From: Pseudodesulfovibrio mercurii
Lineage (GTDB): Bacteria > Desulfobacterota > Desulfovibrionia > Desulfovibrionales > Desulfovibrionaceae
Length of the DNA stretch: 32,000 nucleotides
Assembly: GCF_000189295.2 (NCBI RefSeq)
Contig: NC_016803.1
Coordinates: forward strand, 2,610,001-2,642,000
Direction of reading: 5' to 3'
In this document: piece by piece, positions 8,601 to 26,604 of the stretch
How the letters are laid out: every line of letters starts with the position of its first letter
How positions within the stretch are numbered: the first letter of the stretch is position 1
Notes under the pieces: model-generated
What the model saw: the letters and a program-made list of their open reading frames with translations, nothing else
What the model was told of the DNA's origin: nothing
Databases searched by the model: none
Position numbers and translations under genes: made by a program

Positions 8601-8798
8601 CTGGATCTCGCGGGTCTCCAGGCCGTCCCCGCGCGGGATGGCCACCTCGATCTCGGCGTTGGCCGCGGGGTTGATGTCGACCACCTCGCGGAACCCGGCC
8701 AGGGGGTCGAAGGACGGGACCTCGTCCAGGGCCCAGGCTGCGGGACAGGCGGTCAGGACGGTCAGGATCAGGACCAGGCGGAACGCGAAGCGGTGCAT
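2694..8798 (-). CDS. giant secreted protein (2,034 aa) with two tandem von Willebrand factor A (vWA) domains
   Basis: The ORF 2694..8999 was trimmed to the ATG at 8796-8798, preceded by GGAGGT. The product starts MHRFAFRLVLILTVLTACPAAWALDEV (signal peptide). vWA domain 1 spans about 7029-7556 and has the MIDAS motif VLLVDSSGSM (Asp codon at 7533-7535). vWA domain 2 spans about 6435-6971 and has MVDISGSM. The remaining ~1,250 aa have normal composition, and I recognise no domain in them. Confidence 0.85.
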   Translation of the reverse strand: MHRFAFRLVLILTVLTACPAAWALDEVPSFDPLAGFREVVDINPAANAEIEVAIPRGDGLETREIQGDAWYYTYSGDELPTMIAALKAFAEAQGAELLRDDEFHLLLRKDAGNGVVWWCKGRFENGLDLAVVRTLRLDPGRTVSFPLAGEERVEVRFFTDNPGGRYRSLTVTLPSGECYLEAEEILRAGAYRREIAGKWSLNGGRAQRFAIDGLPQEAGVCHFILSTNPGSDATAVSVTLNEHPYPVPKVRMGEKLGALRIRNVPYGLARIRAVNRFGAVHAFHPEFPDGTGFENGDVTPEGDAYFLMPAGLWQVEVLPTSLKTATAVRAQFVPVHSGRETVLDWPLAMTSVFAAEGGNGLAVNAVERKGNHVDATFSLYGPDAEGMVPLAADLTVREGGSPARVVSVERTRLPLDIVLLVDSSGSMKGQMRNALDATRKFIAALPADARVRVVDFDTKPRALPGETRDAALKGLAGIKANGATCLNDAVLLGLHMLAGAKRPALLVFTDGFDANFNDTGPGSKATRREVLDAVKTGGVPVFTIGFGKGHDVSTLDRIASLSGGRYYPASDPGALDKAFAVVNANLANTFTARYERPTRGRPSNVPVVTCMVDISGSMDKTPDFSGCNYRMDKVKAILHDFLAALPDEVLAQGMTFSDQNVIEQVTTANTGEMLAAMNDLYADGGTEIAGAVAAVLETQRAIPSTRRYLLFITDAALDVEPEDKLFFETTLAKLRDEGVYCLWVGIGELDPAPFKRAAEISGGSYVLTEDPAELGRAFDGLVADIRKPVPSGDAVRTMVELTVRHRLQNGRNLTFAGADQTELPPLKTDDTVEIPAAIGYELAELRERYDPAVSALLTGDGVPVRDARITKRIPIGVTGGNKAAKFTVESAWFLDRLRGLDAPDHYRYLALAVDLQNVLPKQQVLVYPDGSNHPAAWVGNDKATTGKVVEMVPTYVIPDLKRHLFLRWNDAVMTPVSPATWLAETPLTLPDEPAVAVPPKETVRGTVVFLVPDGNMRQLSLHFYDVNYGHAEIPLVGAMPTGADRLSTLPAKPPVRLSDAFSLAVREVRDVTRIGAVQAEEGGVFRVVEADFTSKVQALLDVNPAERFSLRLNTAEGALNVRLHEATALLPMGFYAPTLLSPGSNNRVRLVFRVPGDVAGEAGKGELVVDVKGGGVVVPLDERAAKAVPRTAPDDALKGDGVALVVNGLAPLPDRENLYVADLTLFDQKDGKATQLVDAFILRNRNFTPGPGFEPPPLDWTKSKGLAGFAADNALIPVGTMPPALDTADLVFGVTDETIVPDGGSLRGLILFSLPPSEPDPAAWDLTSPLFPDLKQPVGDEPYPEGRLLVRRQGAEQPYGEGSMVAFEEAVAELARQRAARRFEKPGAYRPKATDLDGDAPPVRAVAVPEITDPAQAEFADIKTLKALKARLKTVRCLPADLGEWRHLFAPQAVLVQNWGGPADFARMAELVLARQGVKTRRLSLELTDRGRQALARLAGLERTDAYAVPALEYRDADGNKHVLVAPFLETEAKLPGLIRKVADDDPSAEPMTASVTVSVLARPVQTGQARAGRELSDALSGESDAGAPVELHLLTASPSLPALSRGAVDLGFTLAGYGNGPVIKAIFDGNDGRVIGADAVDTGDYVIVAERLSITLNQRQLVLELPVDENESLTDRYHCLGLNLPDMDMDAVRKLDKTMRAVHKLEDAPDNLSALRWYARNRLYRFVCAQSEYERSLAGTLKLTVGRTTTPRCLIATVSRTGPDQPVRTALDLRQAANQVQPAPGTNPEAVRAFNILSGLFASQLEAKVLGPDGVGFYQLLPRYPADTRFLWLTADARAAMAEDLKKAVPDRVFRLLNQSRATVLFPDQPAILDGRPRWAWLEVDPDTYRTIAVLDTGERGGMVERVFSDLWKQGLDYVTGGLVGISSSIWSVSAFSLVLDDYKQIMTEAKKFALGLADNFSASVKVGDFQFKGAVGSSQIETTYTGAGAGAVNAAKTGKGWYDKLKEPKIDLGGFEGGFKDGVNFYFSQAGG

Positions 8799-9030
8799 GC
8801 CTACCTCCGGGTTGGGGATGACGCTTATATTCCCATAGCCAATCTTTATGTTCCGGGCAAACTTGTGACCGCCCCGCGCGGCGGGCGTATATGGGCCGCG
8901 CAAGGCGGCGGGAGGAGCGGAGGCGGGCGCACCATCCCCGCCCCGGCCGGATTCCGCTGGCGTTATTTTCGTACAGCGGATATTCTGCGCGGAACTCATA
9001 CGCGTTCATCTTTTTCGGCGAGGAGAGCCC

Positions 9031-11058: not shown

Positions 11059-13221
11059 TTATTGTTGCGGCGTGAAGAAATACACCGTCATTCCCTGGAC
11101 GACGCCCTTGTTGCGGCTGAATGCGATGAAATTGACCTTTTGCGCTTTCTTGTTGTCCATGATGGCGATGCCGATGCCGTTCTTCGTCTCGTCCTTTACC
11201 AGCAGGTCGTTGTTCATGTTCATGACGGCAACATCGAGCTCCCCGTCCTGTTGCGGTACGCTCATGAACAGATAGTGCCCTGTCTCCTCCAGGTCGATGT
11301 CGAATCCGGAATAAAAGACGCCGTTTCTCTCCTCGTCCAGTGCCAGCTTGTCGATCTTTTTTATCACGGAGACATTCATGTCGGGACTTTGCTTTTTAAG
11401 GACGTAGGTTATGAGTGCGTCGGCCGCGTTGCCCAGGGCGGCGTCCCAATAGGCAATGTCTATCCGCGACCGGGCCGGTTGCCCGTCGCCTTTGGGGGAC
11501 GTGGTGTAGGTCAACCCTATATTGCCGGGTTCTCCGGCCAGGACAAAGGCGTAGTGAGCATAGTTGGCGAAGTCGATTTTCGGGGTGTATGCGCTTATGT
11601 TCTTCTTTCCGGAAAGCACGATTTTCATGCCCTGGATGGTATCTTCGGATTGGATGCGTATCAGGTACAGCCCCGGTCTCTCCAAATGGATTTTCTCCGC
11701 GCCCGCACCCGCGCCCTGGCTGTTTTTCATGAGAACGTCGCTGGATATCGACCAGGCGGATTTCACCGTATCGACGCCGAAGATGTCTTTCGCTGCGTCC
11801 AGGACTTCCTGGTTCGATGTCGTGTAGCCCGGCAGATATTCACGCAGGCTTTCCTTCCACTGCTGCTTCAGGGCCGCGACCCTGCCGTCCGGATCCGGGC
11901 CGAGGAGGTCGAACAGGAAATCGATCCGCTGTCCGAAATTCACGTCGGCGGCGTTGGGAGTCCTGGCCCATGTGCCGGGGGACACGTTCATTGAACTGAT
12001 GATCCCGATGACCTTGCCCTCGGCGGTGAACATCGGGCTTCCGCTAGCGCCGCCGGTGACGGGCAGGCCGTGATGGATCAGCCTGTTGGGAAAGTCGTCT
12101 CGCCGGGTCTGGAAGAAATCGGTGACGCGAATTATCTCGTCCTGTTGGGCCACCGGGGCCGGTTTCTTGTTGTTCCCCGGCAACAGCGCCTCCATCGGGT
12201 AGCCGACAAAGGCCACCGGCATGCCCGGACCGATGGCGGAAAGCTCCTCCATGGTTGCCAGGGGCAGGGGCCGCCCCAGGTCTTCCGGGTTCTCGGGGTA
12301 GAGGATGGCGACGTCCGCAGGGGTGGTGGTTTTGAAGAGCGACAGCTTGTCGCCGACTTTTTGGCAGGGCCAATACCCGCTCCACAGGTCGCCGAAGGCG
12401 GCGTATCCCGGATGGATGAACGCGTCCTTGATGACATAACTCCTGTACGGGGCGACGGGCGAGCGGGCGATCATTTCCTCTTGAGGCTTCAGCCGTTCGA
12501 GCTGACCGGCCACATGGGCGTTGGTCACAAGCCGGTTCCCCTCGATGACCCAGGCGGTGCCTGCGGGCTGTTCCCCTCCCCCGCTGTTCCGGACCAGGAT
12601 CAGATATACGGAGCGGCTGATCCCCTCGATAACCTCGCGGGGAATGCCGTCGGCCTGTCCCTTCACCTGGGTCAGGGTTGCGGATATTGCGTCCAGGCGC
12701 GCGGCCACGCGCTGCACGTTGTCGTCCGAGACGTGGATATCCGATTCCAGCCAGAACTGGTGCTCGCCGATATAGAGCATCGCGGCGCCCAGCAACACGA
12801 GGAAGACGAGCAGGGTTCGGAGATGCCTGTTGGTCCGCTGCACCTGCTCCCCCGCCTGCAGGTTCCTCCCCGTGTTGTTCTTCGGCTGCCTCCGTTCGTC
12901 GATCACCTCGACTTCAATGATGACGTCTTCGCCGAGTTGGACGGTCGCCGTGCCCGCTATCTCCTGATCCTCGAAGGGCGTCTCCCCATCGATCAGGACA
13001 TGGTTGTCCATGTTGAGATCGACCTGGTACCGCCCCAGGCTCCGCCTGAAGGCGATATGCTCATTGCCCATTCCCGTGTCCCGATATCGCTCCGGAAACG
13101 AGATGTCGCAGCTCTCGGCGTCGCAGCCGACGACCACCATTTGATGCCGATGGTCGAAATAATATTCCGTTTTCCGGTCCGACGTCGTGCCCTGGAGAAT
13201 GGAGATCTTGAGTCCTGTCAT
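11059..13221 (-). CDS. FHA-like domain / single TM helix / trypsin-fold (S1, Trypsin_2-like) serine protease / C-terminal beta-rich domains (720 aa)
   Basis: The ATG at 13219-13221 is preceded by AAGGA. aa 1-105 (12907-13221) look FHA-like: VVVGCDAESCDISF..NEHIAFRR..GRYQV.L...VLIDGE...VQLGEDVIIEVEV. The TM helix is LLVFLVLLGAAMLYI (about 12769-12822). The protease domain is aa ~205-440 (11902-12609), with a His/Asp/Ser triad in the canonical order: GTAWVIEGNRLVTNAHV (H236), ADVAILY (D303), GGASGSPMF (S393). The last ~280 aa are beta-rich and possibly form two PPC-like sandwiches, which is a weak call. Confidence 0.85.
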   Translation of the reverse strand: MTGLKISILQGTTSDRKTEYYFDHRHQMVVVGCDAESCDISFPERYRDTGMGNEHIAFRRSLGRYQVDLNMDNHVLIDGETPFEDQEIAGTATVQLGEDVIIEVEVIDERRQPKNNTGRNLQAGEQVQRTNRHLRTLLVFLVLLGAAMLYIGEHQFWLESDIHVSDDNVQRVAARLDAISATLTQVKGQADGIPREVIEGISRSVYLILVRNSGGGEQPAGTAWVIEGNRLVTNAHVAGQLERLKPQEEMIARSPVAPYRSYVIKDAFIHPGYAAFGDLWSGYWPCQKVGDKLSLFKTTTPADVAILYPENPEDLGRPLPLATMEELSAIGPGMPVAFVGYPMEALLPGNNKKPAPVAQQDEIIRVTDFFQTRRDDFPNRLIHHGLPVTGGASGSPMFTAEGKVIGIISSMNVSPGTWARTPNAADVNFGQRIDFLFDLLGPDPDGRVAALKQQWKESLREYLPGYTTSNQEVLDAAKDIFGVDTVKSAWSISSDVLMKNSQGAGAGAEKIHLERPGLYLIRIQSEDTIQGMKIVLSGKKNISAYTPKIDFANYAHYAFVLAGEPGNIGLTYTTSPKGDGQPARSRIDIAYWDAALGNAADALITYVLKKQSPDMNVSVIKKIDKLALDEERNGVFYSGFDIDLEETGHYLFMSVPQQDGELDVAVMNMNNDLLVKDETKNGIGIAIMDNKKAQKVNFIAFSRNKGVVQGMTVYFFTPQQ

Positions 13222-13471
13222 ATGGGGTCCTTGGAGGGTCGAGGGGGGATACGGTCAAATCGCAACGGGCATGACGACGCACGGTGGATTTTCAGTACAC
13301 CAACGGGATCATCAAATCCACGTTGATTCTTCAACGGAACGTCAAGGTCAGGTCTGTTCACGGCCCGTCCCGCGTGCGCCGCCGCCCTCGCGGCGCGACA
13401 GGCGTCGTGTGGCGCCGTCCGAGACGGGGCGTCCCGCCTCTGTCTCCGTATGGGCCGCAGGTCCTTCCGCC

Positions 13472-14203
13472 TCATCTGTTGCGGGTTTTCAAACGCCGTC
13501 CCAACGCACGGGCCAACTGTTCCTTCGTATATTCAACCGGAGCCGGAACGGGGCGCGCCCCGCCCGGAGCGAGTATCGACACTTCGCCGGAAGGGGCCGT
13601 TGAAAGGAGAATTATGGGCATGTCGCGTTTCAGGGCCGCATGGACCGTGGCCGCCGTCCCGAGGGGCGTTGAAATATCCCCGTCGAAAACCGCGACCAAC
13701 AGATCGCTGTGATCGGCCAGGACTTCGGAACACGCGGCATACGCCTCAGGCCGATGCGCGGGGGAGCCGTCGAGTTCGATGATCCGGCCGACGGCCCGGC
13801 CCGCCGTTTTGCCGCCGATGCGGGTCAGCCATCGACGAAATTCGGCAACGGTCCCGTGAACCGGGTCCACGACGCTCGCTTCAGGCAGGAAATCCTTTTC
13901 ATATTCAGCCCTGGCGAAGGGCAGGATGGCGGTCAGGGTGTGTTCGAAGGGTATCAGGCCGGGTTCAATGCAGAGCCTGTCCGCTCCCTCCGCCAAGGAG
14001 GAGACGAACAGAAAACCGGCCTGTCCCCGGGCGGGGAAGTCCCCGGCGCCGTCGGCGGATGCGCGGTAAAGGTCCCGGTAGACTTGTCCGAGCTTTTGCC
14101 GCAGGCCCGGCAGCAACGCCGCCTCCAGACGCCTATGGCCTGCCACGCCGATGCGTATGGGAGAGGTCGCGTCCGTAGCGTGTATCTCTTGAAAAGGTCT
14201 CAT
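13472..14203 (-). CDS. small Rossmannoid protein with SLOG-like (LOG/DprA/YpsA/ThsA-C-terminal type) motifs (243 aa)
   Basis: The start is the ATG at 14201-14203; there is no strong Shine-Dalgarno. The motif order is IRIGVAGHRRL (strand plus Gly-loop), then FVSSLAEGADRL, then HSDLLVAVFDG...PLGTAATVHAAL...MPIILL. This matches the strand-loop-helix series of SLOG-fold proteins. Composition is normal. The gene lies upstream of the FHA-protease gene on the same strand and diverges from the TIR gene. The CDS call is firmer than the family call. Confidence 0.6.
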   Translation of the reverse strand: MRPFQEIHATDATSPIRIGVAGHRRLEAALLPGLRQKLGQVYRDLYRASADGAGDFPARGQAGFLFVSSLAEGADRLCIEPGLIPFEHTLTAILPFARAEYEKDFLPEASVVDPVHGTVAEFRRWLTRIGGKTAGRAVGRIIELDGSPAHRPEAYAACSEVLADHSDLLVAVFDGDISTPLGTAATVHAALKRDMPIILLSTAPSGEVSILAPGGARPVPAPVEYTKEQLARALGRRLKTRNR

Positions 14204-14337
14204 GCGGATGCCGCACCCAACGGCCGGACAATGTGAATGTGAACTTTATAAAAAAGCTAGTATATGGGCTTGCAAATTACAAGTACTCTATTTTAAAAAC
14301 TGTTATGGTTTAATATGTTGCCATATTCGGAGACGCC
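14204..14337. promoter_or_regulatory. AT-rich divergent promoter/operator region between the SLOG-like gene and the TIR gene
   Basis: This 134-bp spacer is by far the most AT-rich stretch in the window (TTTATAAAAAAGCTAGTATATGGGCTTGCAAATTACAAGTACTCTATTTTAAAAACTG). It contains TTGCAA and several TAxxxT-like hexamers. The palindrome AATATG-TTGC-CATATT (14312-14327) abuts the GGAGA Shine-Dalgarno (14329-14333) of the TIR gene. No transcription start can be assigned from sequence alone. Confidence 0.4.
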
Positions 14338-16290
14338 ATGAGTGAGACGGAAAGCCATAGATACAGTGCGTTCATCAGCTATCGGCACACCACAAAAGAC
14401 CGGAAATGGGCCGAGTGGCTTTTGGAGGCCCTGGAGACGTACCGTATTCCGAAGGCATTGCAAAAGGCGGGCTTTCCGGGCCGGGTGGGCAGGGTCTTCC
14501 GCGATCGAGACGAACTCCCGACGGACGGCAGCCTGAACAATCAGATCGAGACGGCGCTCAGGCAATCCAGATTCCTGATCGTCATCTGCTCTCCGGACAC
14601 CCCGCAGTCCAAGTGGGTATCCCGGGAAATCGAAATTTTCAAAGAGTTGGGGCGGGGAGACAAGATCCTCCCCCTGCTGGTCGAAGGTGAGCCGGACGAG
14701 TCCTTCCCCAAGGTGCTGACCACGAGTCGGCTTGTCGGTTTCGAGGAGGCCGAGGCCGATCCGCCGGTCAAGGATGTCGAACCCATAGGCGCGGATGTCC
14801 GGCCGGTGGAGGGCAAAAGCGAAAAGGAGATCAGGAAAGACGAACTGCTGCGGCTGGTGGCCGGGATAATCGGCTGCGGTTTCGATGACCTGAAGCAGCG
14901 GGACAAGGAGCGGGAGCGGAAAAAACGCCAGTACCGCATTATGGGGGGCGCAGTGACGTGCCTGCTGCTTCTCGCGGCCGGGCTTTATTATTGGGACTAT
15001 AATCGCATCAAGACAAGCTACTTTAATAACTACGTCAATGTGTACGGCGTCCCCAAGGGGATAGGGCCAATAAGCGATGAAGAGGCGAAGAAGAGGAATG
15101 TCGCCTATGCGCTTTCGTATCAGCGGGGCAAGCTCATACGCATGGTGCGGCAGAAGGGGGCGCAGAGGGCCATAGCCTACGAACAGTCCTACAATGTCGA
15201 CCCGTGGCTGGTTGGCATCGCCGAATGGCGGTATCAGTATGGAGTTCACGGGAGACTGGATAAGGTCTCCCTGTATGATGCCCAAGGCAAATACAAGGTC
15301 GCCCACAATTATGAATTCCCGACCGACGGGGACAAGGCAACCATCTATTTCCGCAAGATGTCCTATGAAGGCGAGGGCATCCCCACGACGGTTGAATCGA
15401 CCTCGTCCCTGCTCGCCGACTCCATGCAGAACGGCAAGAGTGAAATTTTTCAACACATTGTTTACTTCAACGCGCTTGGTTACGAAAGCAGAAGGGTTTT
15501 CCGCACGATCAGCGGGGGGGCCGCCAAAGACCAGCTCGGCGCCGCGGGGTATGCGTATGCGTATGACGGCCACGGCTCACGCGTGCGTGTCCGTTTCCTG
15601 GACACGCAACAGCATGAACTCATACTCAAATCCGGTCTCGCCGAGATCGTCTGTACTCCCTCCATTGACGGCATCGCCGAAACGATGACGTTCCTGAACG
15701 AAAAGGGCGAGCAGCTATTAACTAAGTTCGGGTATGCGAAAATAGTCGTCGAACTGGACGCTCAGAGAAATGCAACAGGGATAAGCGCTCTGGGGACGGA
15801 CGGGCAGCCGATTCTCCACAAGGAAGGGTACGCCCGGCTGATCCGACGCTATGACGACCGGGGCAACCTCATCGAGGAAGCCTACCGGGGAGTGGATGGT
15901 CGGCCCGTCCTCTGCGATGAGGGCTATGCCAAGGTCACCTGCGCATATGACGACCGAGGCAACGCAACGGAATACGCCTACCAGGGCGCCGACGGTCAAC
16001 CGATTCTCCGCAAGAACGGCTATGCCCGGCTGACCCGACGCTATGACGACCGGGGCAACCTGGTCGAACAAGCCTATTGGGGGGTGGATGGTCGGCCCAT
16101 TCTCCACAAGGATGGTTACGCCGAGGTCTCCTGCGAGTACGATGATCGCGGCAACTTCATCAAGGAAGCGTACCGGGGAGTGGATGGGCGGCCGGTCCTT
16201 TGCGGTTATGGCTATGCCAAGGTCACCTGCGCATATGACGACCGAGGAAGCCTACCGGGGAGTGGATGGTCGGCCCGTCCTCTGCGATGA
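14338..16290 (+). CDS. TIR-domain / single-TM / tandem-repeat protein, 5' portion (ends at a frameshift-induced stop)
   Basis: The ATG at 14338 has a GGAGA Shine-Dalgarno 4 nt upstream. TIR motifs occupy aa ~8-130 (14359-14727): YSAFISYRHTTKD..WAEWL, VFRDRDELPTDGSL...I..AL..SRFLIVICSP....SKWVSREIEIF (conserved Glu at E97), ILPLLVEGEP. The linker is EPIGADVRP...LLRLVAGIIGCGFDDLKQRDKERERKKR. The TM helix is IMGGAVTCLLLLAAGLYYW (about 14938-14991). Degenerate repeats and then canonical 32-aa repeats follow. After codon 16243 the frame reads SLPGSGWSARPLR and then a stop. Confidence 0.85.
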   Translation: MSETESHRYSAFISYRHTTKDRKWAEWLLEALETYRIPKALQKAGFPGRVGRVFRDRDELPTDGSLNNQIETALRQSRFLIVICSPDTPQSKWVSREIEIFKELGRGDKILPLLVEGEPDESFPKVLTTSRLVGFEEAEADPPVKDVEPIGADVRPVEGKSEKEIRKDELLRLVAGIIGCGFDDLKQRDKERERKKRQYRIMGGAVTCLLLLAAGLYYWDYNRIKTSYFNNYVNVYGVPKGIGPISDEEAKKRNVAYALSYQRGKLIRMVRQKGAQRAIAYEQSYNVDPWLVGIAEWRYQYGVHGRLDKVSLYDAQGKYKVAHNYEFPTDGDKATIYFRKMSYEGEGIPTTVESTSSLLADSMQNGKSEIFQHIVYFNALGYESRRVFRTISGGAAKDQLGAAGYAYAYDGHGSRVRVRFLDTQQHELILKSGLAEIVCTPSIDGIAETMTFLNEKGEQLLTKFGYAKIVVELDAQRNATGISALGTDGQPILHKEGYARLIRRYDDRGNLIEEAYRGVDGRPVLCDEGYAKVTCAYDDRGNATEYAYQGADGQPILRKNGYARLTRRYDDRGNLVEQAYWGVDGRPILHKDGYAEVSCEYDDRGNFIKEAYRGVDGRPVLCGYGYAKVTCAYDDRGSLPGSGWSARPLR

Positions 16291-19072
16291 GGGCTATGCC
16301 AAGGTCACCTGCGCATATGACGACCGAGGCAACGCAACGGAATACGCCTACCAGGGCGCCGACGGTCAACCGATTCTCCGCAAGAACGGCTATGCCAGGC
16401 TGACCCGACGCTACGACGACCGGGGCAACCTGATCGAACAAGACTATTGGGGAGCGGATGGTCGGCCGATCCTGCAAAAGAACGGGTACGCCCGGCTGAT
16501 CCAACGCTATGATGACCGGGGCAACCTGATCGAACAATCCTATCGGGGAGTGGATGGTCAGCCCATTCTCCACAGGGATGGTTACGCCGGAGTGACCCAA
16601 ACATACGATGAACACGGCAACCTCATCGAGGAAGCCTATTGGGGCGTGGACGGGCAACCGATTCTCCACAAGGAAGGGTACGCCCGGCTGACCCGACGCC
16701 AGGATGACCGGGGCAACCTCATTGAACAATCCTATTGGGGAGTGGACGGTCGACCGATTCTCCGCAAGAACGGCTTTGCCCGGCTGACCCAACGCTATGA
16801 CGACCGGGGCAACCTGGTCGAACAAGACTATTGGGGCGTGGACGGTCAACCGATCCTCCGCAAGAACGGGTATGCCCGGCTGACCCGACGCTATGATGAT
16901 CGGGGCAACCTGATCGAACAATCCTATTGGGGGGTCGGCGGCCAACCGATTCTCCACGAAGAGGGTTACGCCCGGCTGATCCAACGCTATGACGACCGGG
17001 GCAACCTCATCGAACAATCCTATTGGGGGGTGGATGGTCGGCCGGTCCTCCGCGATAACGGCTATGCCAGGCTCACCTGCGAATATGATGATCGCGGCAG
17101 CCTCATCGGGGAGGCCTATTGGGGAGTCGGCGGGCAACCGATTCTCCACAAGGATGGGTACGCCCGGCTGAGCCAACAATACGATGACCGGGGCAACCTG
17201 ATTGAACAATCCTATTGGGGCGTGGACGACCGGCCGATTCTCCACAAGAACGGGTATGCCAGGCTCACCTGCGAATATGATGATCGCGGCAGCCTCATCG
17301 AGGAAGCCTATTGGGGCGTCGACGGGCAACCGATTCTCCAAAGGGATGGGTACGCCAGGTTGGCCCAACAATACGATGACCGGGGCAACCTGATTGAACA
17401 ATCCTATTGGGGCGTGGACGGTCAACCGATTCTTCGCAAGAAGGGGTTTGCCAGGCTGACCCAACGCTATGATGATCGCGGCAACATTCTTGAGGAAGCC
17501 TATTGGGGCGCCGACGGTCAGCCGATTCTCAATAAGGATGGCTACGCCAGGCTGACCCGGAAATACGACGGCCGGGACAACGTGACGGAATATGCCTACT
17601 GGGGAACCGACGGGCAGCCGATCCTCTGCAAAAACTATTTCGCCAGGCTGACCCAGAAATACGATGGTCGGGGCAATCTCGTCGAGGAGGCCTACTGGGG
17701 AACCGACGGGCAACCGATCCTTTGCAAAAACGCTTTCGCCAGGTTGACCCAACGCTATGATGGGCGGGGCAACCTCATTGAACAGGCCTATTGGGGACCT
17801 GATGGGCGGCCGATCCTTTGCAGTAACGGGTATGCCGGGTTCACCAGCGAATATGATGGCCGGGGCAACGTCATTGGACTAGCCTATTGGGGCGTTGACG
17901 GGAAGCCGACGTTTCTCAAAGCGGGCTATTGCATGCAGACCCGGCAATATGATGATCGAGGCAACGTCATTGAGGAAGCCTACTGGGGACCCGATGGGCA
18001 GCCGATCCTTTGCAGAAAAGGGTATGCCCGGGTCACTCAGCAATATGATGATCGGGGCAATGTCACGGGATACGCCTACTGGGGGGTAAGCGGGCAGCCG
18101 ATTCTTCAATGGGAGGGCTATGCCGGGGACACTCGAAAGTATGATGATCGAGACAACGTTACGGAACATGCCTACTGGGGAACCGATGGACGGCCGATCC
18201 TCTGCACGGAGGGGTATGCCAAGGTCGCCCTACGCTATGATGGTCGAGGGAACCTCATCGAAGAAGTCTACCTGGGAATGGACGGGCAGCCGGTCCTGAG
18301 CAAAAGAACCGGTTTTTCCAGGCTCACAAAGAAATATGACGCCCAAGGGAATGTAACGGAATATGCGTGCTGGGGCGTTGACGGGAAACCCATCCTGCAT
18401 CCCGGCGGCTTTTCCAAATTCCTCGTGCGACATGATGCCCGGGGAAATCATATTGAGGAAGCCTATTACGGTCCGTCGGGAAAGCCCGTTCTTATCCAAA
18501 AAGGCTACGCCAAGCTCACCGAAAGGTATGACGATCGAGGGTACCGGATCGAGCAGGCCTATTGGGGAGTAGATGGAGCGCCCATCCTCCGGAAAGACGG
18601 TTTTGCCAAGCTCACCGAAAGGTATGATGGTCGAGGGCATGTCACGGAGCAAGCGTACTGGGGAGTGGACGGTAGGCCGATTCTCCACAAAAAGGGTTAT
18701 GCCAAGGTCACCTACGAGTATGATGATCGGGGCAACGTCATCGAGGAAGCCTACTGGGGAGTGGATGGACGGCCGATCCTCAACCAAAATGGATATGCCA
18801 GGCTGACCCCGAAACATGACGACCGAGGCAACATCATTGAGGAAGCCTACTGGGGAGTGGATGGACGGCCGATCCTCAACGGAGAGGGGTGTGCCGTGCT
18901 GACGCTCAAGTATGACGGCCGGGGGAACGTCACGGAACACGCCTTTTGGGGAATAGACGGAAGACCCATATCGGGTGCAAAGGGATATGCCAAATGCACC
19001 CTGAAATATGCTCCCGAGACGAATGCATTGCTCGAAGTCCGCTACTATGACGCAAAGGGAAATGTCATGAAG
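15730..19072 (+). repeat. coding tandem array: 35 units of 96 bp (32 aa), consensus GYARLTRRYDDRGNLIEQAYWGVDGRPILxKx (YD/RHS-like beta-hairpin repeat)
   Basis: I counted the units directly from the translation: 6 in the first ORF and 29 in the second. One unit is 82 bp (16234-16315), one is 33 aa, and the last is a degenerate 30 aa. Each unit looks like two 16-aa halves (xxAxxxxxYDxxGNxI and ExAYWGxDGxPIxxxx). 15873-16026 is identical to 16243-16396 (154 nt). A 37-nt string (GCTATGCCAAGGTCACCTGCGCATATGACGACCGAGG) occurs three times. Confidence 0.9.
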
Positions 19073-19075
19073 TAA
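16043..19075 (+). CDS. 3' portion of the same TIR-repeat gene (29 further 32-aa repeat units), in the +1 frame relative to 14338..16290
   Basis: The ORF-track frame opens at 16043, but its first ~67 codons are out-of-frame readings of the repeats. Meaningful repeat translation starts at 16244 (EEAYRGVDGRPVLCDEGYAKVTCAYDDRGN...). It runs to the TAA at 19073-19075. There is no independent Shine-Dalgarno or start context at 16244, so this is most simply the continuation of one disrupted gene. Confidence 0.7.
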   Translation: MTTGATWSNKPIGGWMVGPFSTRMVTPRSPASTMIAATSSRKRTGEWMGGRSFAVMAMPRSPAHMTTEEAYRGVDGRPVLCDEGYAKVTCAYDDRGNATEYAYQGADGQPILRKNGYARLTRRYDDRGNLIEQDYWGADGRPILQKNGYARLIQRYDDRGNLIEQSYRGVDGQPILHRDGYAGVTQTYDEHGNLIEEAYWGVDGQPILHKEGYARLTRRQDDRGNLIEQSYWGVDGRPILRKNGFARLTQRYDDRGNLVEQDYWGVDGQPILRKNGYARLTRRYDDRGNLIEQSYWGVGGQPILHEEGYARLIQRYDDRGNLIEQSYWGVDGRPVLRDNGYARLTCEYDDRGSLIGEAYWGVGGQPILHKDGYARLSQQYDDRGNLIEQSYWGVDDRPILHKNGYARLTCEYDDRGSLIEEAYWGVDGQPILQRDGYARLAQQYDDRGNLIEQSYWGVDGQPILRKKGFARLTQRYDDRGNILEEAYWGADGQPILNKDGYARLTRKYDGRDNVTEYAYWGTDGQPILCKNYFARLTQKYDGRGNLVEEAYWGTDGQPILCKNAFARLTQRYDGRGNLIEQAYWGPDGRPILCSNGYAGFTSEYDGRGNVIGLAYWGVDGKPTFLKAGYCMQTRQYDDRGNVIEEAYWGPDGQPILCRKGYARVTQQYDDRGNVTGYAYWGVSGQPILQWEGYAGDTRKYDDRDNVTEHAYWGTDGRPILCTEGYAKVALRYDGRGNLIEEVYLGMDGQPVLSKRTGFSRLTKKYDAQGNVTEYACWGVDGKPILHPGGFSKFLVRHDARGNHIEEAYYGPSGKPVLIQKGYAKLTERYDDRGYRIEQAYWGVDGAPILRKDGFAKLTERYDGRGHVTEQAYWGVDGRPILHKKGYAKVTYEYDDRGNVIEEAYWGVDGRPILNQNGYARLTPKHDDRGNIIEEAYWGVDGRPILNGEGCAVLTLKYDGRGNVTEHAFWGIDGRPISGAKGYAKCTLKYAPETNALLEVRYYDAKGNVMK

Positions 19076-21008
19076 TGGACAACCCGCAAGACTCCTTCAG
19101 CAACTTCGGCAGGGTCCGTTGCATGTCCCTGTCGAATTCCTTTGTCTTTTCACTCAGCTCGTCAAAGGGGATCATGTCCGGGTGCGTCAGGCGCAAATCG
19201 TCGCGCGGTCCTTTTTCCCAGCCCGCCAGGACGCGTTCGACCCACCAGCGGTTGTGCTCCTGTTCGGCCATGGTCTCGATTTGTTCGTCGGTGAACGTGG
19301 CGTTGTCCGTATCCGCCTCGGCGGCGGCCAGGCTGAATCCGTTGCTCCTCAGGCGCTCGAGATAGGCGTCCGCCTGGTAGCGGTTCGACCAGCGGTATTT
19401 CTCGCTCAGCCGTTCCCAGGGCTTTTGCGCGGGTTTGTTCCGATCCATCCAGCCGTTGGCCTGCAACGTGTTCAGATATACCTGATGAATGGACCGCGCC
19501 AACCGTTCCTGCTGGGCGTCGTCAAGAAGGTACTCGTCCAGCGAGCCGAAGAAACGGATATTGTCCCACCGGGTGTCCGGGGCCTCCACCTGCCGGTCCT
19601 TTTCCCTGGTCGTGACCGAAACGGCGGTTTGCTCCTGAAGCCGCCGGGCGAATTCGGAAAGACCGGCGGTCACTTCCTGCCGGACCAATATCGGAATCTC
19701 GCCGATCAGCACCTCGGGGGGCAATCCCAGGGCCGTGGACATGGACTGGTCGGGATCGGAGAGACAGATGACCACGGTGAGTATTTTCTTTTCGTCCAAG
19801 GCCAGCCCGGTCAGCAATTCCCTGGCCTCGGGAGCATCCGCCGCGGCCTCGTGAAAGACGAAGCGCACGCCGGGCAGGCGGCCATCCACCAGGCCGTGCT
19901 GCATCTCGAAAGCGGTCCTCCTTGTGCCGAGGTCGGGATCAAAAACCACGATTTCGGCATCCTGGTTGTTGGCATGGTTGGCCAGCCGCGCCGCCTGCAA
20001 GGCCATGGCCTGCCCCATCTGCCCGAATCCGAGGATCGCGACCACCACGTTCGCGCCCGGGGCGCGCCTACTGTACAGTAGCGGAGGGTAGGGGGGATGC
20101 GGATGGCGGGCGTCCGGCAGGCGGCTCCAGACCTTGCGGGCCCAGCCTTCGTAAAAATTGAAGGGGCGGAAATCCAGGAATTGGCGGTCTTCCTCCGACA
20201 GATCGATCTCCTGGAGCAGATCGTATGTCCGCAGATGGGAAATGGCCACCTGGCAGCCGAGCAGGCCGGATGGGGTGCCGGGAGATGCCTTGGAAACCAT
20301 CTCCGCTATGCGCATGGCCGTTTGCAGGTTGCGGCTGTTGCTGCCCCTTACCTGGGGATCGCCCAAGATGACCACCTTCCGTGCGGCCCAGGGGCGGAGA
20401 TTCCGTAATTCTTCAACGGCATCGAAGGACCCGTGGAAAATGAAGACATGCCGGGTTTTCTTTCGGAGTTCCTTTGCATCAAAAGCGGAGAAGGTCGTGA
20501 GGGCGTTGCGCACCTTCTCGGCCTCGCTCATGGTCAGGACGACCACCTCCCGGCATCCCTCGGAAAGCAGGTGATGCACCGTTGCGGGACCCATGCGGTC
20601 CCACCCCAAGATGATGCCGTGGTCCTTCTTGAAGGTATACCGGGCAAGCCCTTGACGAGCCCGGCGCATGCGGCGCTCATACGTGTTCACCAGCACCGAG
20701 ACGAACAGGCCCCCCAAAAGGAGGAACCCGGCCAGGGATAAAGCCACACTGAGAAGACGCCATTCGGAATGTCCCGCCTCATTTCCCAAAAAGCCCGGAT
20801 CCATCGTGTGTACGAACGCCCACCAGAACGGATCACAGGAATTCGTTCCGAGAACGTCGATGTTCATGCTCTTGGCAACCAGCCATCCCGCCAGGAGGAT
20901 GACGCAATAGGTAACGATCAGCATCCGGACTTGACTGAAAACGGACCCGGCCAAGATCCTGTCGAGCTGTTTGGAAATGAAGCTGCAAGGCAAGATTTTC
21001 ATTGTCAC
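19065..21008 (-). CDS. 2-TM ion-channel-like protein with two RCK/TrkA-N-like Rossmann modules and C-terminal tandem RyR-type domains (647 aa)
   Basis: The likely start is the GTG at 21006-21008, with AAGGA 6 nt upstream; an alternative ATG lies at 21000-21002. TM1 is VRMLIVTYCVILLAGWLVA. The pore-helix-like string is DPFWWAFVHTMDPGFLG, which has no TVGYG filter. TM2 is LLSVALSLAGFLLLGGLFVSVLV. The channel region spans about 20679-20927. Rossmann motifs are GIILGWDRMG and VVAILGFGQMGQA. RyR-type motifs lie at about 19089-19511: ERLARSIHQVYLNTLQANGW...KPWERLSEKYRWSNRYQADAYLERLRSNGF and MAEQEHNRWWVERVLAGWEKGP...THPDMIPFDELSEKTKEFDRDM. The stop codon overlaps the convergent TIR-repeat gene by 11 bp. 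Confidence 0.8.
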   Translation of the reverse strand: MTMKILPCSFISKQLDRILAGSVFSQVRMLIVTYCVILLAGWLVAKSMNIDVLGTNSCDPFWWAFVHTMDPGFLGNEAGHSEWRLLSVALSLAGFLLLGGLFVSVLVNTYERRMRRARQGLARYTFKKDHGIILGWDRMGPATVHHLLSEGCREVVVLTMSEAEKVRNALTTFSAFDAKELRKKTRHVFIFHGSFDAVEELRNLRPWAARKVVILGDPQVRGSNSRNLQTAMRIAEMVSKASPGTPSGLLGCQVAISHLRTYDLLQEIDLSEEDRQFLDFRPFNFYEGWARKVWSRLPDARHPHPPYPPLLYSRRAPGANVVVAILGFGQMGQAMALQAARLANHANNQDAEIVVFDPDLGTRRTAFEMQHGLVDGRLPGVRFVFHEAAADAPEARELLTGLALDEKKILTVVICLSDPDQSMSTALGLPPEVLIGEIPILVRQEVTAGLSEFARRLQEQTAVSVTTREKDRQVEAPDTRWDNIRFFGSLDEYLLDDAQQERLARSIHQVYLNTLQANGWMDRNKPAQKPWERLSEKYRWSNRYQADAYLERLRSNGFSLAAAEADTDNATFTDEQIETMAEQEHNRWWVERVLAGWEKGPRDDLRLTHPDMIPFDELSEKTKEFDRDMQRTLPKLLKESCGLSITS

Positions 21009-21164
21009 GTTTCATCCTTGTCGAAGAAGATGGATACCCGCATGCGTCATGTGGGGCCTGCGGCACAAAATGAACGTTTGCCGAGGCCCTCGTTTCAGAT
21101 CCGGGCTTGCGTCCGCTCCCGGCTTCTTTCCGGCCGTCCATTCCAGGCAATTTGCCTGATGGAT

Positions 21165-21254
21165 GGCAAACTCCGCAGGCGTCGGGTTGCCCAAGGAACA
21201 GAGAGGACGATCCACATTGTAGTCCCGCCTCCACGCTCCGACTTTACGCTGCGT
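21165..21254 (-). pseudogene. remnant of an IS3-family transposase (C-terminal end of the rve/integrase-core OrfB)
   Basis: The translation TQRKVGAWRRDYNVDRPLCSLGNPTPAEFA matches the conserved IS3 OrfB C-terminal signature (..W...YN..RPHSSLG..TP.EF), with HS replaced by LC. I could not find the catalytic core upstream in any frame, so only about 30 codons survive. Confidence 0.55.
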
Positions 21255-22172
21255 ATCCCCCGGAGACAATCAACATGTCCAGCCGGCCATATCAACAGGA
21301 GAATCGGACAATAACCCTCCTCTTGCAAGGGTATAGCCCGTGGACATCTTCGGAGCAACCTTGCGCTTTTTACTCTCCGAAGCATTCGCTCCCGCGCGTG
21401 TTGTCGTGAGCCTTGCCCCTATTCCTGGGCGCCGGCCGCTTGGCAACCACAGGGAAGAACGGAGGCGGCGAAAAGGGACGAAACGTCCGTCCGTCGCCTC
21501 TGCCGATCCCCGATCCCCAACCGGATTCCTCCAGGCGTTTTTCGGCAAGATGTATGGGTGATGCGCCACCCGGACCTGTGGCCATGGGTTCCGGTTCCAG
21601 GCGAAGCGCTTCGGTCTGGATTCCCCGGTCGCCGGGCTCCGTCCGTCCGCTTTCGCCTGGGCGTCATGCGGGGCGGAATGAAGCTCCACGTTGTTCGACC
21701 AAAACGGATGGCTGCCCGCCTTCGTCCGGGTGACCAAGGCCCGGCTGCACGATTCCGGGATGGCCGAGATGCTGAAGCGGCCCAAGGGGTCCATCGCCGT
21801 ATGACCAGGCCCACGGCAACCATTCCCGGTTTCGGACGCTGGAAGCTCCCCGCGTGTCCCTTGTCGCCAGGCGCGGGACCAACGCCCTTCATGCAGAGGT
21901 CAGGCGACGTTCTGCCGGGAAAGGCGGGGCGTGACCTCGGGCCGCGCGGTCAACGCCATCGTCCGCGGCAAGGCGTTCCGCCTTCGGCGCAGGGGCGACC
22001 GAGACAGGGAAAGCGGAAAGTACCAAGCGGTTGCGAGGATCGAGGCCCTGTGGGTTGATGAGACCGACACCGCACGGCAAGAAGCCGTTGAAGCGTGAGG
22101 AAGATCGACGAGAATTCACCCACCCACGAAAAAGGCTTCCGTCAAAACTGACGAAAGCCTTTGATTCCGAAG

Positions 22173-22248
22173 TGGTGCTCGGGGACAGAATTGAACTGCC
22201 GACACGGGGATTTTCAGTCCCCTGCTCTACCGACTGAGCTACCCGAGC
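22173..22248 (-). tRNA. tRNA-Phe (anticodon GAA), 76 nt with encoded CCA
   Basis: The reverse complement reads GCTCGGGTAGCTCAGTCGGTAGAGCAGGGGACTGAAAATCCCCGTGTCGGCAGTTCAATTCTGTCCCCGAGCACCA. The acceptor stem GCTCGGG/CCCGAGC is perfect, as are the D stem GCTC/GAGC and the anticodon stem GGGGA/TCCCC. The anticodon loop is CTGAAAA, placing GAA at positions 34-36. The T arm is GGCAG-TTCAATT-CTGTC, and a 3' CCA is encoded. Confidence 0.95.
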
Positions 22249-22436: not shown

Positions 22437-22485
22437 TCGGCGCTAAGTCGGCGCTAAGTCGGCGCTGAGTCGGCGCTGGGTCGGC
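22437..22485. repeat. 11-bp tandem repeat, about 4.4 copies (TCGGCGCTAAG)
   Basis: The sequence reads TCGGCGCTAAG TCGGCGCTAAG TCGGCGCTGAG TCGGCGCTGGG TCGGC. It sits in the non-coding gap between tRNA-Phe and the 3' end of the AOR gene. Confidence 0.85.
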
Positions 22486-22510
22486 AATAGGCCGGGGGCG
22501 GGCCGGGAGC

Positions 22511-24727: not shown

Positions 24728-26356
24728 TCACTCCACGATCTGCAGGATATCCTGCTTGAGCGCCCACAGGATATGATTTTCAATTCGGGTGACATCCATG
24801 GGCGCCACGTCGGCAACCTTGCGTATCAGGGTTGCGCTGTCAACCGGGTTGCGGGCGAAAAAGGCCAGCCGCCGGACCACGTCGAGGTCTATGGCGTCCT
24901 TCAGCCCCGCGTACAGATTGGGAAAATCACGGTTCCGGTAAAACGCCTCGCCCGTGCGGCCCACGGACAGTTTCACCGTATCGTCAAGGACCCGCGAGGG
25001 GTAGTGGCCGAAGATGCGCCCGTACTCCGGGGCCAGGGGGTGGGCCAGGTCGCGCAGGGGGGCGGCCTCGGCCGGTTCCCGCCACAGCTCCTCCCACAGA
25101 TCCAGATACCGCCCGATGACCACGGGCCAGGAAAATTCCCGGACCACCCGCTCGCGTCCGGCCGCGCCCATGGCCCGGCGCAGCGCGGGCTCGCGGATCA
25201 GCCGTCCGAGCGCCCCGGCCAGGGCGGGCACGTCCACGGCCGTGGCCTGGGCCAGGGACAGGTGGTAGTGGTTGTCGAAATTCAGCGGCGCGGTCAGGTC
25301 CACCTCCGGGGTGGCCGACGGCCCCATGGTCGGCACCAGGAAGCCGGTCTCGCCGTGGACCACGATGTCCCGGTAACCGTCGTAGTCCGAGGCCACCACG
25401 GGCAGTCCGAAGGCCCCGGCCTCCGCCAGGGTGATGCCGAAGGTCTCCTGCGGGTTGTCCGCGATGGACACGAACACGTCCGCCATGCGGAACAGCTCCC
25501 GCTTGCGCGCCTCGCCCGGCCGCAGGACCACGCTCATGGGGATGCCCGCGTTGGCCGCCAGGTGGGTCAGGGTGTCCAGGACATGGGTCTCGCGCTCGGC
25601 CCAGCCCGCCAGGACCAGCTCCACGGAGCGCGGGTCGAGCCCGTCCCGGATCAGCCGGTGCACGGCCCGGACCAGGGGGACCAGGTCCATCTTCGAATGG
25701 TGGGAGATGCGCCCGAAGACCAGGATGCGCACCGGCCCGTCCGTCTCGCCTCCGCCCTTGGCGCCCGGCGCATACGCCCCGGTGTCCACGGCCAGGGGGA
25801 TGCGCTTGAGGCCAGGTGCGGGGTGGGTGTCCTCGCCCAGGCCGAAGCCCCGGCGCAGCTGCCCGAAGAAGCCCTCCACCGCGATCCGGCCCGCCTCGGA
25901 GGTGCAGACGATGGCGTCGCGCCGGGTGGTGCCGGGCCACAGGTGTTGCAGGAATGCCTTGGGATAGCCCGCGTAGCTCAGGGAATGGATCAGCCCGGTG
26001 ACCGGAAAGATGCGCGCGCTCAAGGCGTTGCGCAGCCGGGCCAGGTACGGCTGGCTGGTGATGCAGTCCGACAGGTGGAAGCAGTGGTAATCCGTGCTCC
26101 CGACCATGCCGGGCAACGCCTCGCGGAGCATGAGCCGGACGCGTCCGCCCTCGACCAGCCCCGGCGCGCGCTTCTCCAGGTGCTTTCGCAGCGGGGCCAG
26201 GGCGCGCTCGCCGGGCAGGAAGAAATGGTATTCGTCAAAGGGATCGGCCGCGAGCAGCCCGTCCAGGAAGGCCGTGTTGGCCACGGTCCGGCCCAGGACC
26301 GGTCCGCCCTCGAAAAAAGGGTCCAGGGTGCCCCAGATGCGTTTTGTTCCGGTCAT
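24728..26356 (-). CDS. GT-B fold glycosyltransferase (family 1/4-like), 542 aa
   Basis: The ORF was trimmed to the ATG at 26354-26356 (MTGTKRIWGTLDPFF); the Shine-Dalgarno is weak. The C-terminal half has the typical strings ADVFVSIADNPQETFGITLAEAGAFGLPVVASDYDGYRDIVVHGETGFLVP. The start is uncertain; the longest ORF starts at 26473. Confidence 0.75.
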   Translation of the reverse strand: MTGTKRIWGTLDPFFEGGPVLGRTVANTAFLDGLLAADPFDEYHFFLPGERALAPLRKHLEKRAPGLVEGGRVRLMLREALPGMVGSTDYHCFHLSDCITSQPYLARLRNALSARIFPVTGLIHSLSYAGYPKAFLQHLWPGTTRRDAIVCTSEAGRIAVEGFFGQLRRGFGLGEDTHPAPGLKRIPLAVDTGAYAPGAKGGGETDGPVRILVFGRISHHSKMDLVPLVRAVHRLIRDGLDPRSVELVLAGWAERETHVLDTLTHLAANAGIPMSVVLRPGEARKRELFRMADVFVSIADNPQETFGITLAEAGAFGLPVVASDYDGYRDIVVHGETGFLVPTMGPSATPEVDLTAPLNFDNHYHLSLAQATAVDVPALAGALGRLIREPALRRAMGAAGRERVVREFSWPVVIGRYLDLWEELWREPAEAAPLRDLAHPLAPEYGRIFGHYPSRVLDDTVKLSVGRTGEAFYRNRDFPNLYAGLKDAIDLDVVRRLAFFARNPVDSATLIRKVADVAPMDVTRIENHILWALKQDILQIVE

Positions 26357-26604
26357 GCCTAGGTAAAGACCGTTCCGGCCCGGTTTGTCAATGGCCGGGC
26401 GTCCGGCCCCTGGGCAGACTTTGCCGACCCGTCCCGCGTCCCGTCCGCGACCGCCTGATTTTTTGCCAGCCATATCAGCCCCCTGTCCGCCGCCGGGCCG
26501 TTCCTCACCAGACCGTCACCCGACGTGGCCCCGATTTTGCTCAATCCCGGATGAGGCGGAAGGAACCGCCAATGTTTTGACGTCGTAAAGGAGTACGATG
26601 GAGC

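Follow-up and report, generated by a model that had tools for sequence, protein, structure and literature searches.

The window analyzed here is a stretch of 32,000 nucleotides from the chromosome of Pseudodesulfovibrio mercurii (Desulfovibrio sp. ND132), namely positions 2,610,001 to 2,642,000 of contig NC_016803.1, and all positions given below are those of the window. It contains a block of four genes, here named A to D, which code for a protease, a SLOG-fold protein, a TIR-domain protein and a channel-like protein with ryanodine receptor (RyR) repeats, and which is considered as a candidate locus for signaling by NAD-derived nucleotides. The block is recognizable by its GC content of 0.56-0.62 over ~11.0-21.5 kb, compared to 0.65-0.74 in the flanks. 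Gene A (11059-13221, minus strand) encodes a protein of 720 aa with an FHA-like N-terminus, a transmembrane (TM) helix and a trypsin-fold protease, and a spacer of 250 bp (13222-13471) separates it from gene B (13472-14203, minus strand), which encodes a stand-alone SLOG-fold protein of 243 aa. Gene C lies on the plus strand and diverges from B across 134 bp (14204-14337). Its 5′ part (14338-16290) is an open reading frame (ORF) of 650 aa with the TIR domain, a TM helix, a juxtamembrane domain and the first YD-type repeats, and its 3′ part (16248-19075, in a second frame open from 16043) holds the remaining ~29 YD/RHS-type repeats. Gene D (19065-21008, minus strand) encodes 647 aa comprising a 2-TM pore-like module, two RCK modules and a tandem RyR domain; it is convergent with C and overlaps its end by 11 bp (19065-19075). 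The SLOG-like and protease proteins are 100% identical to DND132_2366 and DND132_2365 respectively, and the channel protein is 100% identical to an entry annotated ‘Ryanodine receptor Ryr’. An initial annotation, made by a model from the sequence alone, had already given the GC dip, the ORFs of A, B and D, the 134-bp divergent spacer and the 11-bp convergent overlap, all of which agree with the coordinates found here.

The TIR domain of C (residues 12-121, nt 14371-14700) is matched by Pfam TIR_2 (E-value 4.5e-15) and ThsB_TIR (2e-9). In an alignment with TcpB and PdTIR, two bacterial TIR proteins, residue E97 falls on the Glu of their R-E-L motif, a Glu taken here to be the catalytic one. A TM helix follows (residues 201-219, nt 14938-14994, by hydropathy), then a juxtamembrane domain of ~250 aa and YD-type repeats of 32 aa, with ~35 units of 96 nt lying between ~15681 and ~19041 according to Tandem Repeats Finder (TRF) and repeat spacing. 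These repeats are of the YD/RHS type (TIGR01643 YD_repeat, E-value 3.8e-21, 74.7 bits vs a cut-off of 15.8; RHS_repeat, 9e-11, 42.3 bits vs 22). As a basic stretch precedes the single TM helix of both C and A (hydropathy and positive-inside rule), C is predicted to possess a cytoplasmic TIR domain, one membrane pass and a periplasmic repeat region of ~1350 aa, and A a cytoplasmic FHA-like domain and a periplasmic protease domain.

The TIR domain, E97, the single TM helix and the ~35 repeats had all been foreseen in the initial annotation, but its single ORF of 14338-19075 does not stand, this interval being divided between an ORF of 650 aa (14338-16290) and another of 1010 aa (16043-19075) in a different frame. 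The cause is an aberrant repeat unit at 16234-16315 (plus strand), which measures 82 nt instead of the normal 96 nt; when the 96-nt units are printed in register, 14 nt are gone after TATGACGACCGAGG. TRF likewise reports an 82-nt period at 16163-16329, and the spacing of the repeat family there is 274 vs 288. The 5′ ORF ends at the stop codon created by this frameshift. Past the shift the downstream frame remains open for 2.8 kb with well-kept repeats, which means that either the lesion arose recently or the repeat array was misassembled at this point; independent Logan short-read assemblies of this strain are interrupted at the array and do not decide between the two. Two stretches of 300 nt within the array (15873-16172 and 16243-16542) are 88% identical, compared to 60-80% for other unit pairs, and are offset by 370 nt, a distance not divisible by 3; a segmental duplication or a mis-join within the array may be the origin of the frameshift. 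Orthologs of C are intact, with 1297 aa in the related locus L108 and at least 1153 aa in L084.

Gene B encodes the motifs GVAGHR, SSLAEGADR, EYEKDF and FDG..GT, with GVAGHR, AEGAD and GGT being conserved among its homologs. The GenBank start of DND132_2366 gives a protein of 214 aa and cuts off the strand-1 motif GVAGHR, which aligns in all homologs, and for this reason the 243-aa start is more likely to be correct; the exact 243-aa sequence is not on record, GenBank carrying the 214-aa version. The protein itself has no match in Pfam, NCBIfam or PADLOC, and hence the SLOG, LSDAT or YpsA profile match that had been expected for it was not obtained, but the SLOG assignment is upheld at the level of structure. 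The AlphaFold2 (AF2) model of B (mean confidence, pLDDT, of 88.9) shows a SLOG fold, its best Foldseek matches all being SLOG-superfamily members, namely YpsA (3.3e-5, TM-score 0.71 on the target) followed by DprA, ShosA, the ThsA SLOG domain, TRPM2/4 and LOG. The ThsA SLOG domain bound to 3′cADPR (cADPR, cyclic ADP-ribose) is matched at 2.2e-3, and the N-terminal region of TRPM2/4 weakly. Weak profile matches of B homologs (Nuc_deoxyrib_tr 8.6e-5, YAcAr 4e-3, and YpsA at best 7.6e-5 in two of 52 long homologs) point to the same clan as the structural matches, and a profile of B compared to the PDB gave 0.01 to nucleoside 2-deoxyribosyltransferase.

Most homologs of B carry a C-terminal 4-TM SLATT/DUF4231 module that is missing from B, in which hydropathy shows no TM helix. 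Among the 52 long homologs this 4-TM region is matched by DUF4231 in 43 and by SLATT_1 in 20, and also by SLATT_3. No SLATT remnant was found downstream of B in the 250-bp spacer. Pfam detects no SIR2 domain in the window either, B consisting of SLOG alone. A metagenome scan with B retrieved distant relatives only, with identities of at most 37% over most of the protein.

The product of gene D begins with the 2-TM pore-like module (residues 23-106, nt 20691-20942), in which two hydrophobic helices span residues 23-53 and 88-106. The loop between them reads FWWAFVHTMDPGFLGNE, containing the non-canonical stretch HTMDPGFLG. The two RCK/Rossmann modules (residues ~125-495, nt 19524-20636) reach an E-value of only 0.02 with Pfam TrkA_N, the profile that had been anticipated for them, but the 2-TM pore and both RCK modules are borne out at fold level. 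In the AF2 model (pLDDT 78) the pore and tandem RCK are GsuK-like, GsuK being the top Foldseek match (5e-9 over 447-521 aligned columns), followed by Slo1/2, CASTOR and MthK. The C-terminus is a tandem RyR Repeat12-like domain (residues ~498-641, nt 19086-19517) which, as proposed, is recognized by profile (PF02026, E-value 7e-15, 55.5 bits vs a gathering cut-off of 27.4) and which also matches RyR1-3 in phmmer (E-value ~1e-21) and the RyR3 Repeat12 structure 9ls7 in Foldseek (9e-6). The second repeat reads EH(585)NRW(588)...TH(609)P...FD(626)RD. The aligned D family shows no variation at E584, H585, R587, W588 and D626 and in most members has His at the position of H609, and the RyR domain is covalently joined to the RCK ring in every member. 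The residues H585-x2-W588, H609 and D626 match the ligand-contact spacing of two phage RyR-domain proteins, RyDEP and RyR Tad, an equivalence drawn from the spacing. A D homolog of 41% identity in L104 (2-6238) lies between a protein of at least 976 aa, with a beta-helix and Listeria-Bacteroides repeats, and a Peptidase_M48 gene; this short contig holds no TIR or SLOG gene, and the partner set may differ there.

Gene A encodes a divergent FHA-like N-terminus (residues ~1-110, nt 12892-13221), a TM helix by hydropathy (residues 134-152, nt 12766-12822), a trypsin-fold serine protease domain (residues ~190-420, nt 11962-12654; Trypsin_2 E-value 1.3e-12, 49.1 bits vs 27.6) and ~300 C-terminal aa with no assigned fold. 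The family is large, with 1054 representative clusters, and the triad H236, D303 and S393 is invariant in 50 homologs. The protease, its triad and the TM helix were thus found as first described, but the FHA domain was reached only by way of the family: A itself has no Pfam match to FHA at an E-value of 0.1 or below, and PF00498 is matched by 11 of the 50 family members over the homologous N-terminus. Canonical FHA domains contact phosphothreonine through a G-R and S-x-x-H pattern. In A the sequence is VVGCD and GNEH where the family consensus is IGRDP and VGREH, and with GC and NEH in place of GR and SxxH the domain has an FHA-like fold for which phosphopeptide binding is doubtful.

The same gene set was found in other genomes from three independent anchors. 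With B as the anchor, at least 531 loci of its family were identified in a species-representative genome collection, and the best 80 were analyzed with flanks of 10 kb. A TIR domain is present in 42 of these 80 loci, a RyR domain in 15 and both in eight, while in 66 the SLOG domain is fused to a C-terminal 4-TM region. In a scan of 83 loci, 41 of the 43 with TIR have it no further than 5 kb from the SLOG gene. The RyR ORF, in the majority of RyR loci, shares the strand of the SLOG gene and stops no more than ~350 bp upstream of it. One cluster of neighboring proteins (n = 42) contains 31 with TIR_2, combined with TPR, WD40, nSTAND1, AAA_16 or SIR2_2. RyR-positive loci occur in Nitrosomonas, Acidobacteriota, Aminicenantes, Chloroflexota, Thermoleophilia and Deltaproteobacteria. 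An impression of absent synteny gained from two distant B homologs (L001, L003), whose contexts seemed unrelated, was reversed by this larger sample. In three loci (L063, L064, L078) a SLOG-only gene is directly followed by a D-type gene, a pairing that is compatible with D taking over the membrane function in loci without SLATT. In L064, L078 and L082 a single SLOG gene is surrounded by two or three RyR-domain genes, with a small RyR ORF upstream and a D-type gene downstream, an arrangement that hints at a division of labor among RyR modules.

From the channel anchor, the closest homologs of D (65-67% identity) are convergent to TIR genes which are in turn divergent from a SLOG-SLATT gene. 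From the protease anchor, a D-type TrkA_N/RyR protein and a SLOG-SLATT gene accompany each of the three A homologs examined, two of which also have a TIR gene in their locus. The most complete parallel is an uncultured Desulfosarcina, in which D is followed on the opposite strand by a TIR and RHS-repeat protein (1297 aa, intact) and a TIR-WD40 protein, then by a divergent SLOG-4TM gene and finally A, the relative order and orientation being as in the window. Identities to the window are 67% for D, 67% for A and 52% for B, and for C 79% in the TIR region, 49% in the juxtamembrane domain and ~50% in the repeats. The divergent TIR/SLOG arrangement occurs in L084, L085, L102 and L108. A SLOG-only B (47% identity) is found on two short metagenomic contigs of 43-44% GC (L084, L085); on one of them it is divergent from a C homolog (72% in the TIR region), and on the other (L085) it is followed, after a gap of 305 bp, by an A homolog. 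The same neighbors around a SLOG-only B in two other organisms indicate that the form without SLATT is a conserved variant and not a product of decay.

A related locus, L110/L111/L112 (1-22172), has A, TIR-WD40, D-type and SLOG-SLATT genes together with two extra FHA-trypsin proteins, an SH3_3 protein, a Ser/Thr kinase fused to TIR_2, a stand-alone FHA protein, a PP2C phosphatase and a Cas_NE0113-family protein, a gene set that suggests phospho-signaling input in some versions of the cassette.

From these three anchors, and across several phyla, the four-gene juxtaposition is a conserved cassette and not a product of chance. The co-occurrence in unrelated taxa that the initial annotation had put forward for checking is present, with SLOG, TIR and RyR together in the eight loci noted above and all four genes in Desulfosarcina. 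The same synteny backs its proposal of a single functional unit working through a TIR-derived nucleotide signal, a function that we infer from the gene content.

At the right edge of the low-GC block, six-frame translation reveals the C-terminal remnant of a transposase (AWRRDYNVDRPLCSLGNPTPAEF; 21100-21270, minus strand). The fragment (…AWRRDYNVDRPLCSLGNPTPAEFAIHQ…) has no intact ORF and adjoins the start of the channel gene; its motif resembles the end of an IS3-type integrase core, and it is probably an insertion sequence (IS) scar at the edge of the island. A tRNA-Phe(GAA) gene (22173-22248, minus strand; ARAGORN) lies ~1.1 kb past the block and is a possible integration landmark. No integrase was found in the window, and no att-type direct repeat of the 3′ end of tRNA-Phe at the left edge of the block. 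Owing to its low GC content and the IS remnant the block looks horizontally acquired. Promoter and terminator scans of 10.8-21.4 kb gave nothing above shuffled expectation, with no promoter match above chance in the 134-bp spacer between B and C. In the gap between A and B, an ORF of 85 aa (13218-13475, minus strand) first seemed to be translationally coupled to both neighbors, but was rejected as probably spurious because it has no family match, is rich in Arg, Pro and Ala, and corresponds to a 305-bp gap in L085 with stops in all frames.

The left flank contains genes for a Bmp-family binding protein, a 2101-aa vWA protein and a DUF389 membrane protein, and the right flank tRNA-Phe, an aldehyde:ferredoxin oxidoreductase, a glycosyltransferase, a GGDEF protein and a T7-type phage portal protein. 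The ORF of the vWA giant (2694-8999, minus strand; ~72% GC, vWA domain at residues ~464-645) is separated from the island by the DUF389 gene; such giants occur in MoxR-vWA conflict systems, and the relatives of the block show no vWA link to the island. The glycosyltransferase (24728-26473, minus strand) is of group 1 and also matches PF20706 ‘GT4-conflict’ (7.7e-9), a family named after conflict systems. The portal, or T7-type head-to-tail connector, protein (29229-30968, plus strand; Pfam E-value 2.9e-154) points to a prophage or phage remnant ~8 kb to the right of the island. Between tRNA-Phe and the aldehyde:ferredoxin oxidoreductase gene, at 22441-22490, a 12-nt unit (GGCGCTAAGTCG-like) occurs four times in tandem.

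The association of SLOG with SLATT is reportedly due to Burroughs et al. in 2015. TIR + SLOG and SLOG-SLATT are established predicted associations in the Pfam SLATT family descriptions and are restated in later Aravind-lab papers, and SLATT modules have been described as cell-killing effectors. Thoeris types V-XI were defined in a December 2025 preprint, with TIR + SLATT as type VII, using canonical cADPR, and TIR + ion channel as type X, the signal of which is unknown (bioRxiv 10.64898/2025.12.03.692087). ‘SLOG and 4TM’ proteins appear in its Table S2 among the candidate Thoeris effectors, and a RyR domain, TrkA or trypsin is mentioned neither in the text nor in the supplements. RyDEP, a phage protein with a RyR domain, cleaves 2′/3′cADPR, with H75 and D117 being catalytic and W78 and H100 holding the ligand (May 2026, PMC13232231), while other phage RyDEP homologs are nanomolar sponges of 2′/3′cADPR (PMC13232231). 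RyR Tad binds 3′cADPR at 43 nM and 2′cADPR and cADPR at <1 uM, with H129/W132, H154 and K170/D171 as ligand contacts (June 2026, bioRxiv 10.64898/2026.06.04.730250). The early caution against treating the RyR repeat as an established cADPR-binding site is, with RyDEP and RyR Tad, outdated for the prokaryotic and viral branch. Combinations of TIR, STAND, trypsin and FHA have been described in conflict systems of multicellular bacteria, in a paper where RyR is nowhere mentioned (Kaur et al., 2020; PMC7159879). No publication was found with host RyR-domain proteins in TIR/SLOG loci, those found placing RyR-domain proteins on the phage side only, as sponges or hydrolases. It had also been proposed that no described system has this composition. 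This is too broad, as TIR + SLOG, SLOG-SLATT and types VII and X were already predicted or defined; TIR-SLOG(-4TM) pairs are therefore not new, but the RyR-channel and FHA-protease partners appear undescribed.

As in Thoeris types I, III, VII and X, the TIR protein of the block adjoins a SLOG nucleotide-signal receptor and a membrane effector, this being SLATT in the relatives and a channel here. The likeness extends to the ThsB_TIR match of C and the match of the B model to ligand-bound ThsA SLOG; the TIR domain has kept its Glu, and the adjacent receptor gene is coupled to an effector with conserved co-occurrence. However, C is not a small ThsB but a TM receptor of 1.3-1.6 kaa (thousand aa) with YD repeats, its counterpart in the relatives being a STAND, WD40 or TPR giant; there are four genes, including the RyR/RCK channel and the FHA-protease; and the SLOG family has no Pfam SLOG match. 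Unlike type I (ThsB + SIR2-SLOG ThsA), no SIR2 is fused to B, and one relative has a SIR2_2-TIR_2 protein instead. Type III consists of a multi-TIR protein with a SLOG effector and type VII of TIR + the SLATT protein ThsH, and the window’s B differs from type VII and the SLOG-SLATT class in lacking the SLATT-type TM module found in its relatives. Type X pairs TIR with the ion channel ThsK. Most B homologs, being SLOG + DUF4231/SLATT 4-TM proteins beside TIR genes, resemble the ‘SLOG and 4TM’ candidates, but B itself has no TM module, and RyR-domain and protease partners are unmentioned for those candidates.

D belongs to the same family, PF02026, as RyDEP and RyR Tad and has conserved His-x2-Trp, His and Asp at spacings that match their ligand contacts; these phage proteins are, however, small, soluble, dimerizing viral anti-defense proteins. 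The D-type RyR domain is host-encoded, forms an intramolecular tandem repeat, is fused to a pore and RCK (or exists as a small ORF by SLOG-SLATT) and lies inside a TIR locus. With GsuK, MthK and Slo it has in common the 2-TM pore followed by tandem RCK, but it differs in its pore loop and TrkA_N score and in the extra C-terminal RyR domain. Likeness to animal ryanodine receptors (Repeat12, through the D C-terminus) and to TRPM2 (SLOG-like MHR1/2, through the weak match of the B model) is at the level of modules and not of whole proteins, since the pore architecture is entirely different and D is far smaller; the shared theme is a NAD-derived nucleotide acting on a cation channel. The relatives mix STAND NTPases, TIR, WD40/TPR arrays, trypsin-like peptidases, FHA and SLATT in the manner of the conflict systems of Kaur et al. 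(2020), but the window copy has no NTPase.

Taken together, these data lead us to read the block as a horizontally acquired copy of a conserved Thoeris-type nucleotide-signaling cassette in which the RyR/RCK channel is the signal-gated effector, with a probability of roughly 0.6. Judged from their domains, C would be the sensor and signal source, B and the RyR module of D the receptors, and D, perhaps with A, the effector. An envelope cue or phage infection would cause the TIR domains of C to associate and convert NAD+ to a cADPR-type signal that both the SLOG protein B and the RyR module in D would detect. Ligand binding would act on the RCK gating ring and open the D pore, so that ion gradients are dissipated and the cell is arrested, and A may be a second effector or a regulator working across the membrane. 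As the SLATT module is absent from this copy of B, D would be the membrane effector.

Several observations weigh against this interpretation. K+ channels carry the selectivity signature T-V-G-Y-G, which is absent from the D pore loop, and ion conduction by D is therefore an assumption. The FHA-like domain of A does not have the phosphothreonine-binding Arg and Ser, and the topologies of A and C derive solely from hydropathy and the positive-inside rule. The A family is absent from all 80 SLOG-anchored genomic loci, making A an accessory of the sub-lineage closest to the window. The RyR domain is a small stand-alone ORF, without the channel part, in 11 of the 28 RyR-domain loci, mostly directly upstream of SLOG-SLATT, and a buffer or hydrolase role fits such ORFs as well as a gating role. 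PADLOC, which the initial annotation had named as a check for known systems, called none in the window and offers models for neither B nor D. Of the ‘SLOG and 4TM’ candidates, two from Streptomyces and Nitrospira, which may or may not belong to the B family, gave no defense in E. coli (bioRxiv 10.64898/2025.12.03.692087). Lastly, gene C is split in the ND132 sequence, which means that the cassette may be impaired in ND132 or that the assembly is wrong there.

This last point raises the alternative that the block in ND132 is a decaying, non-functional remnant of the cassette. The frameshift in C would be in keeping with it, as would the transposase fragment at the edge and a B without the SLATT module that its closest complete relative has. 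Yet A, B and D are full-length with intact catalytic and presumed ligand residues, the 3′ part of C has stayed open over its 2.8 kb with its repeats in good order, and the SLOG-only B recurs with the same neighbors at 47% identity in two other organisms. Decay is an unlikely explanation, though the least unlikely of the alternatives.

The RyR module could also be a built-in signal sink, in the form of a sponge or a RyDEP-like glycosidase, that sets a threshold or switches the response off, with SLOG(-SLATT) as the true receptor and effector and with D gated via RCK by something else. Characterized RyR-domain proteins are indeed sponges or hydrolases and not gates, the His and Asp that are catalytic in RyDEP are conserved in D as judged by spacing, the stand-alone RyR ORFs favor such a role, and the top fold matches of D include GsuK structures with bound ADP and NAD. 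We nevertheless hold this to be unlikely, as the RyR domain sits covalently on the RCK ring in all aligned D-type proteins, a placement typical of a regulatory ligand sensor, and the pairing of SLOG-only genes with D-type genes where SLATT is missing suggests D to be the membrane effector.

Less probable again is that the cassette is an envelope or cell-contact signaling device, Toll-like-receptor-like and not anti-phage, in which the YD repeats sense a ligand or a neighboring cell and the output of channel and protease remodels physiology or the envelope without killing. Such a device would suit the predicted topology of C and the predicted periplasmic location of the A protease, and no known defense genes lie beside the block within the window. 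The Ser/Thr kinase-TIR fusion, FHA protein and PP2C phosphatase of the related locus are typical signaling parts, and conflict systems of multicellular bacteria contain TIR, STAND, trypsin and FHA combinations (PMC7159879). However, the TIR partner in most relatives is a soluble STAND, TPR or WD40 protein, as in immune sensors, SLATT modules are described as cell-killing effectors, and the block resembles a mobile island. A chance juxtaposition of unrelated genes in a junk island, which low GC and an IS scar might suggest, can be dismissed as extremely improbable since searches from three independent anchors retrieve this gene set in several phyla, and Desulfosarcina preserves its relative order and orientation.

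An extension of the preferred reading, in which D is a signal-gated effector, concerns the origin of the RyR repeat. D-type proteins might be ion channels gated by cADPR-type signals, in which RyR Repeat12 senses the signal made by TIR, and the RyR repeat might have arisen in bacterial TIR immunity, later to be borrowed by phages as a sponge or hydrolase and then built into eukaryotic RyR channels. We offer this as a tentative proposal that is possible but on balance doubtful.

Signaling by TIR-derived nucleotides, as in Thoeris, is a fast-moving field in which new effector types are still being catalogued. The locus in the window and its relatives place a RyR domain on the host side, within TIR-SLOG cassettes and often fused to an RCK-gated pore. 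The interest of the block lies mainly in this host-side RyR domain, its other distinguishing parts being the FHA-protease partner and the TM-anchored TIR sensor with YD repeats. With its TM-anchored TIR domain and a large repeat region predicted outside the membrane, C would be a rare bacterial analog of the topology of Toll-like receptors. If the RyR module does sense the TIR signal, D-type proteins would be a new effector class, the source of the phage anti-Thoeris RyR domain would be explained, and a small, expressible bacterial protein would be at hand for studying how nucleotide binding by Repeat12 is coupled to channel gating. This coupling matters for animal RyRs, in which the action of cADPR has long been disputed and for which D-type proteins would, if the proposal is true, be a direct and tractable model. 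In its occurrence within TIR-SLOG cassettes there is a hint that the RyR repeat of animals originated as a receptor of nucleotide signals made by TIR proteins.

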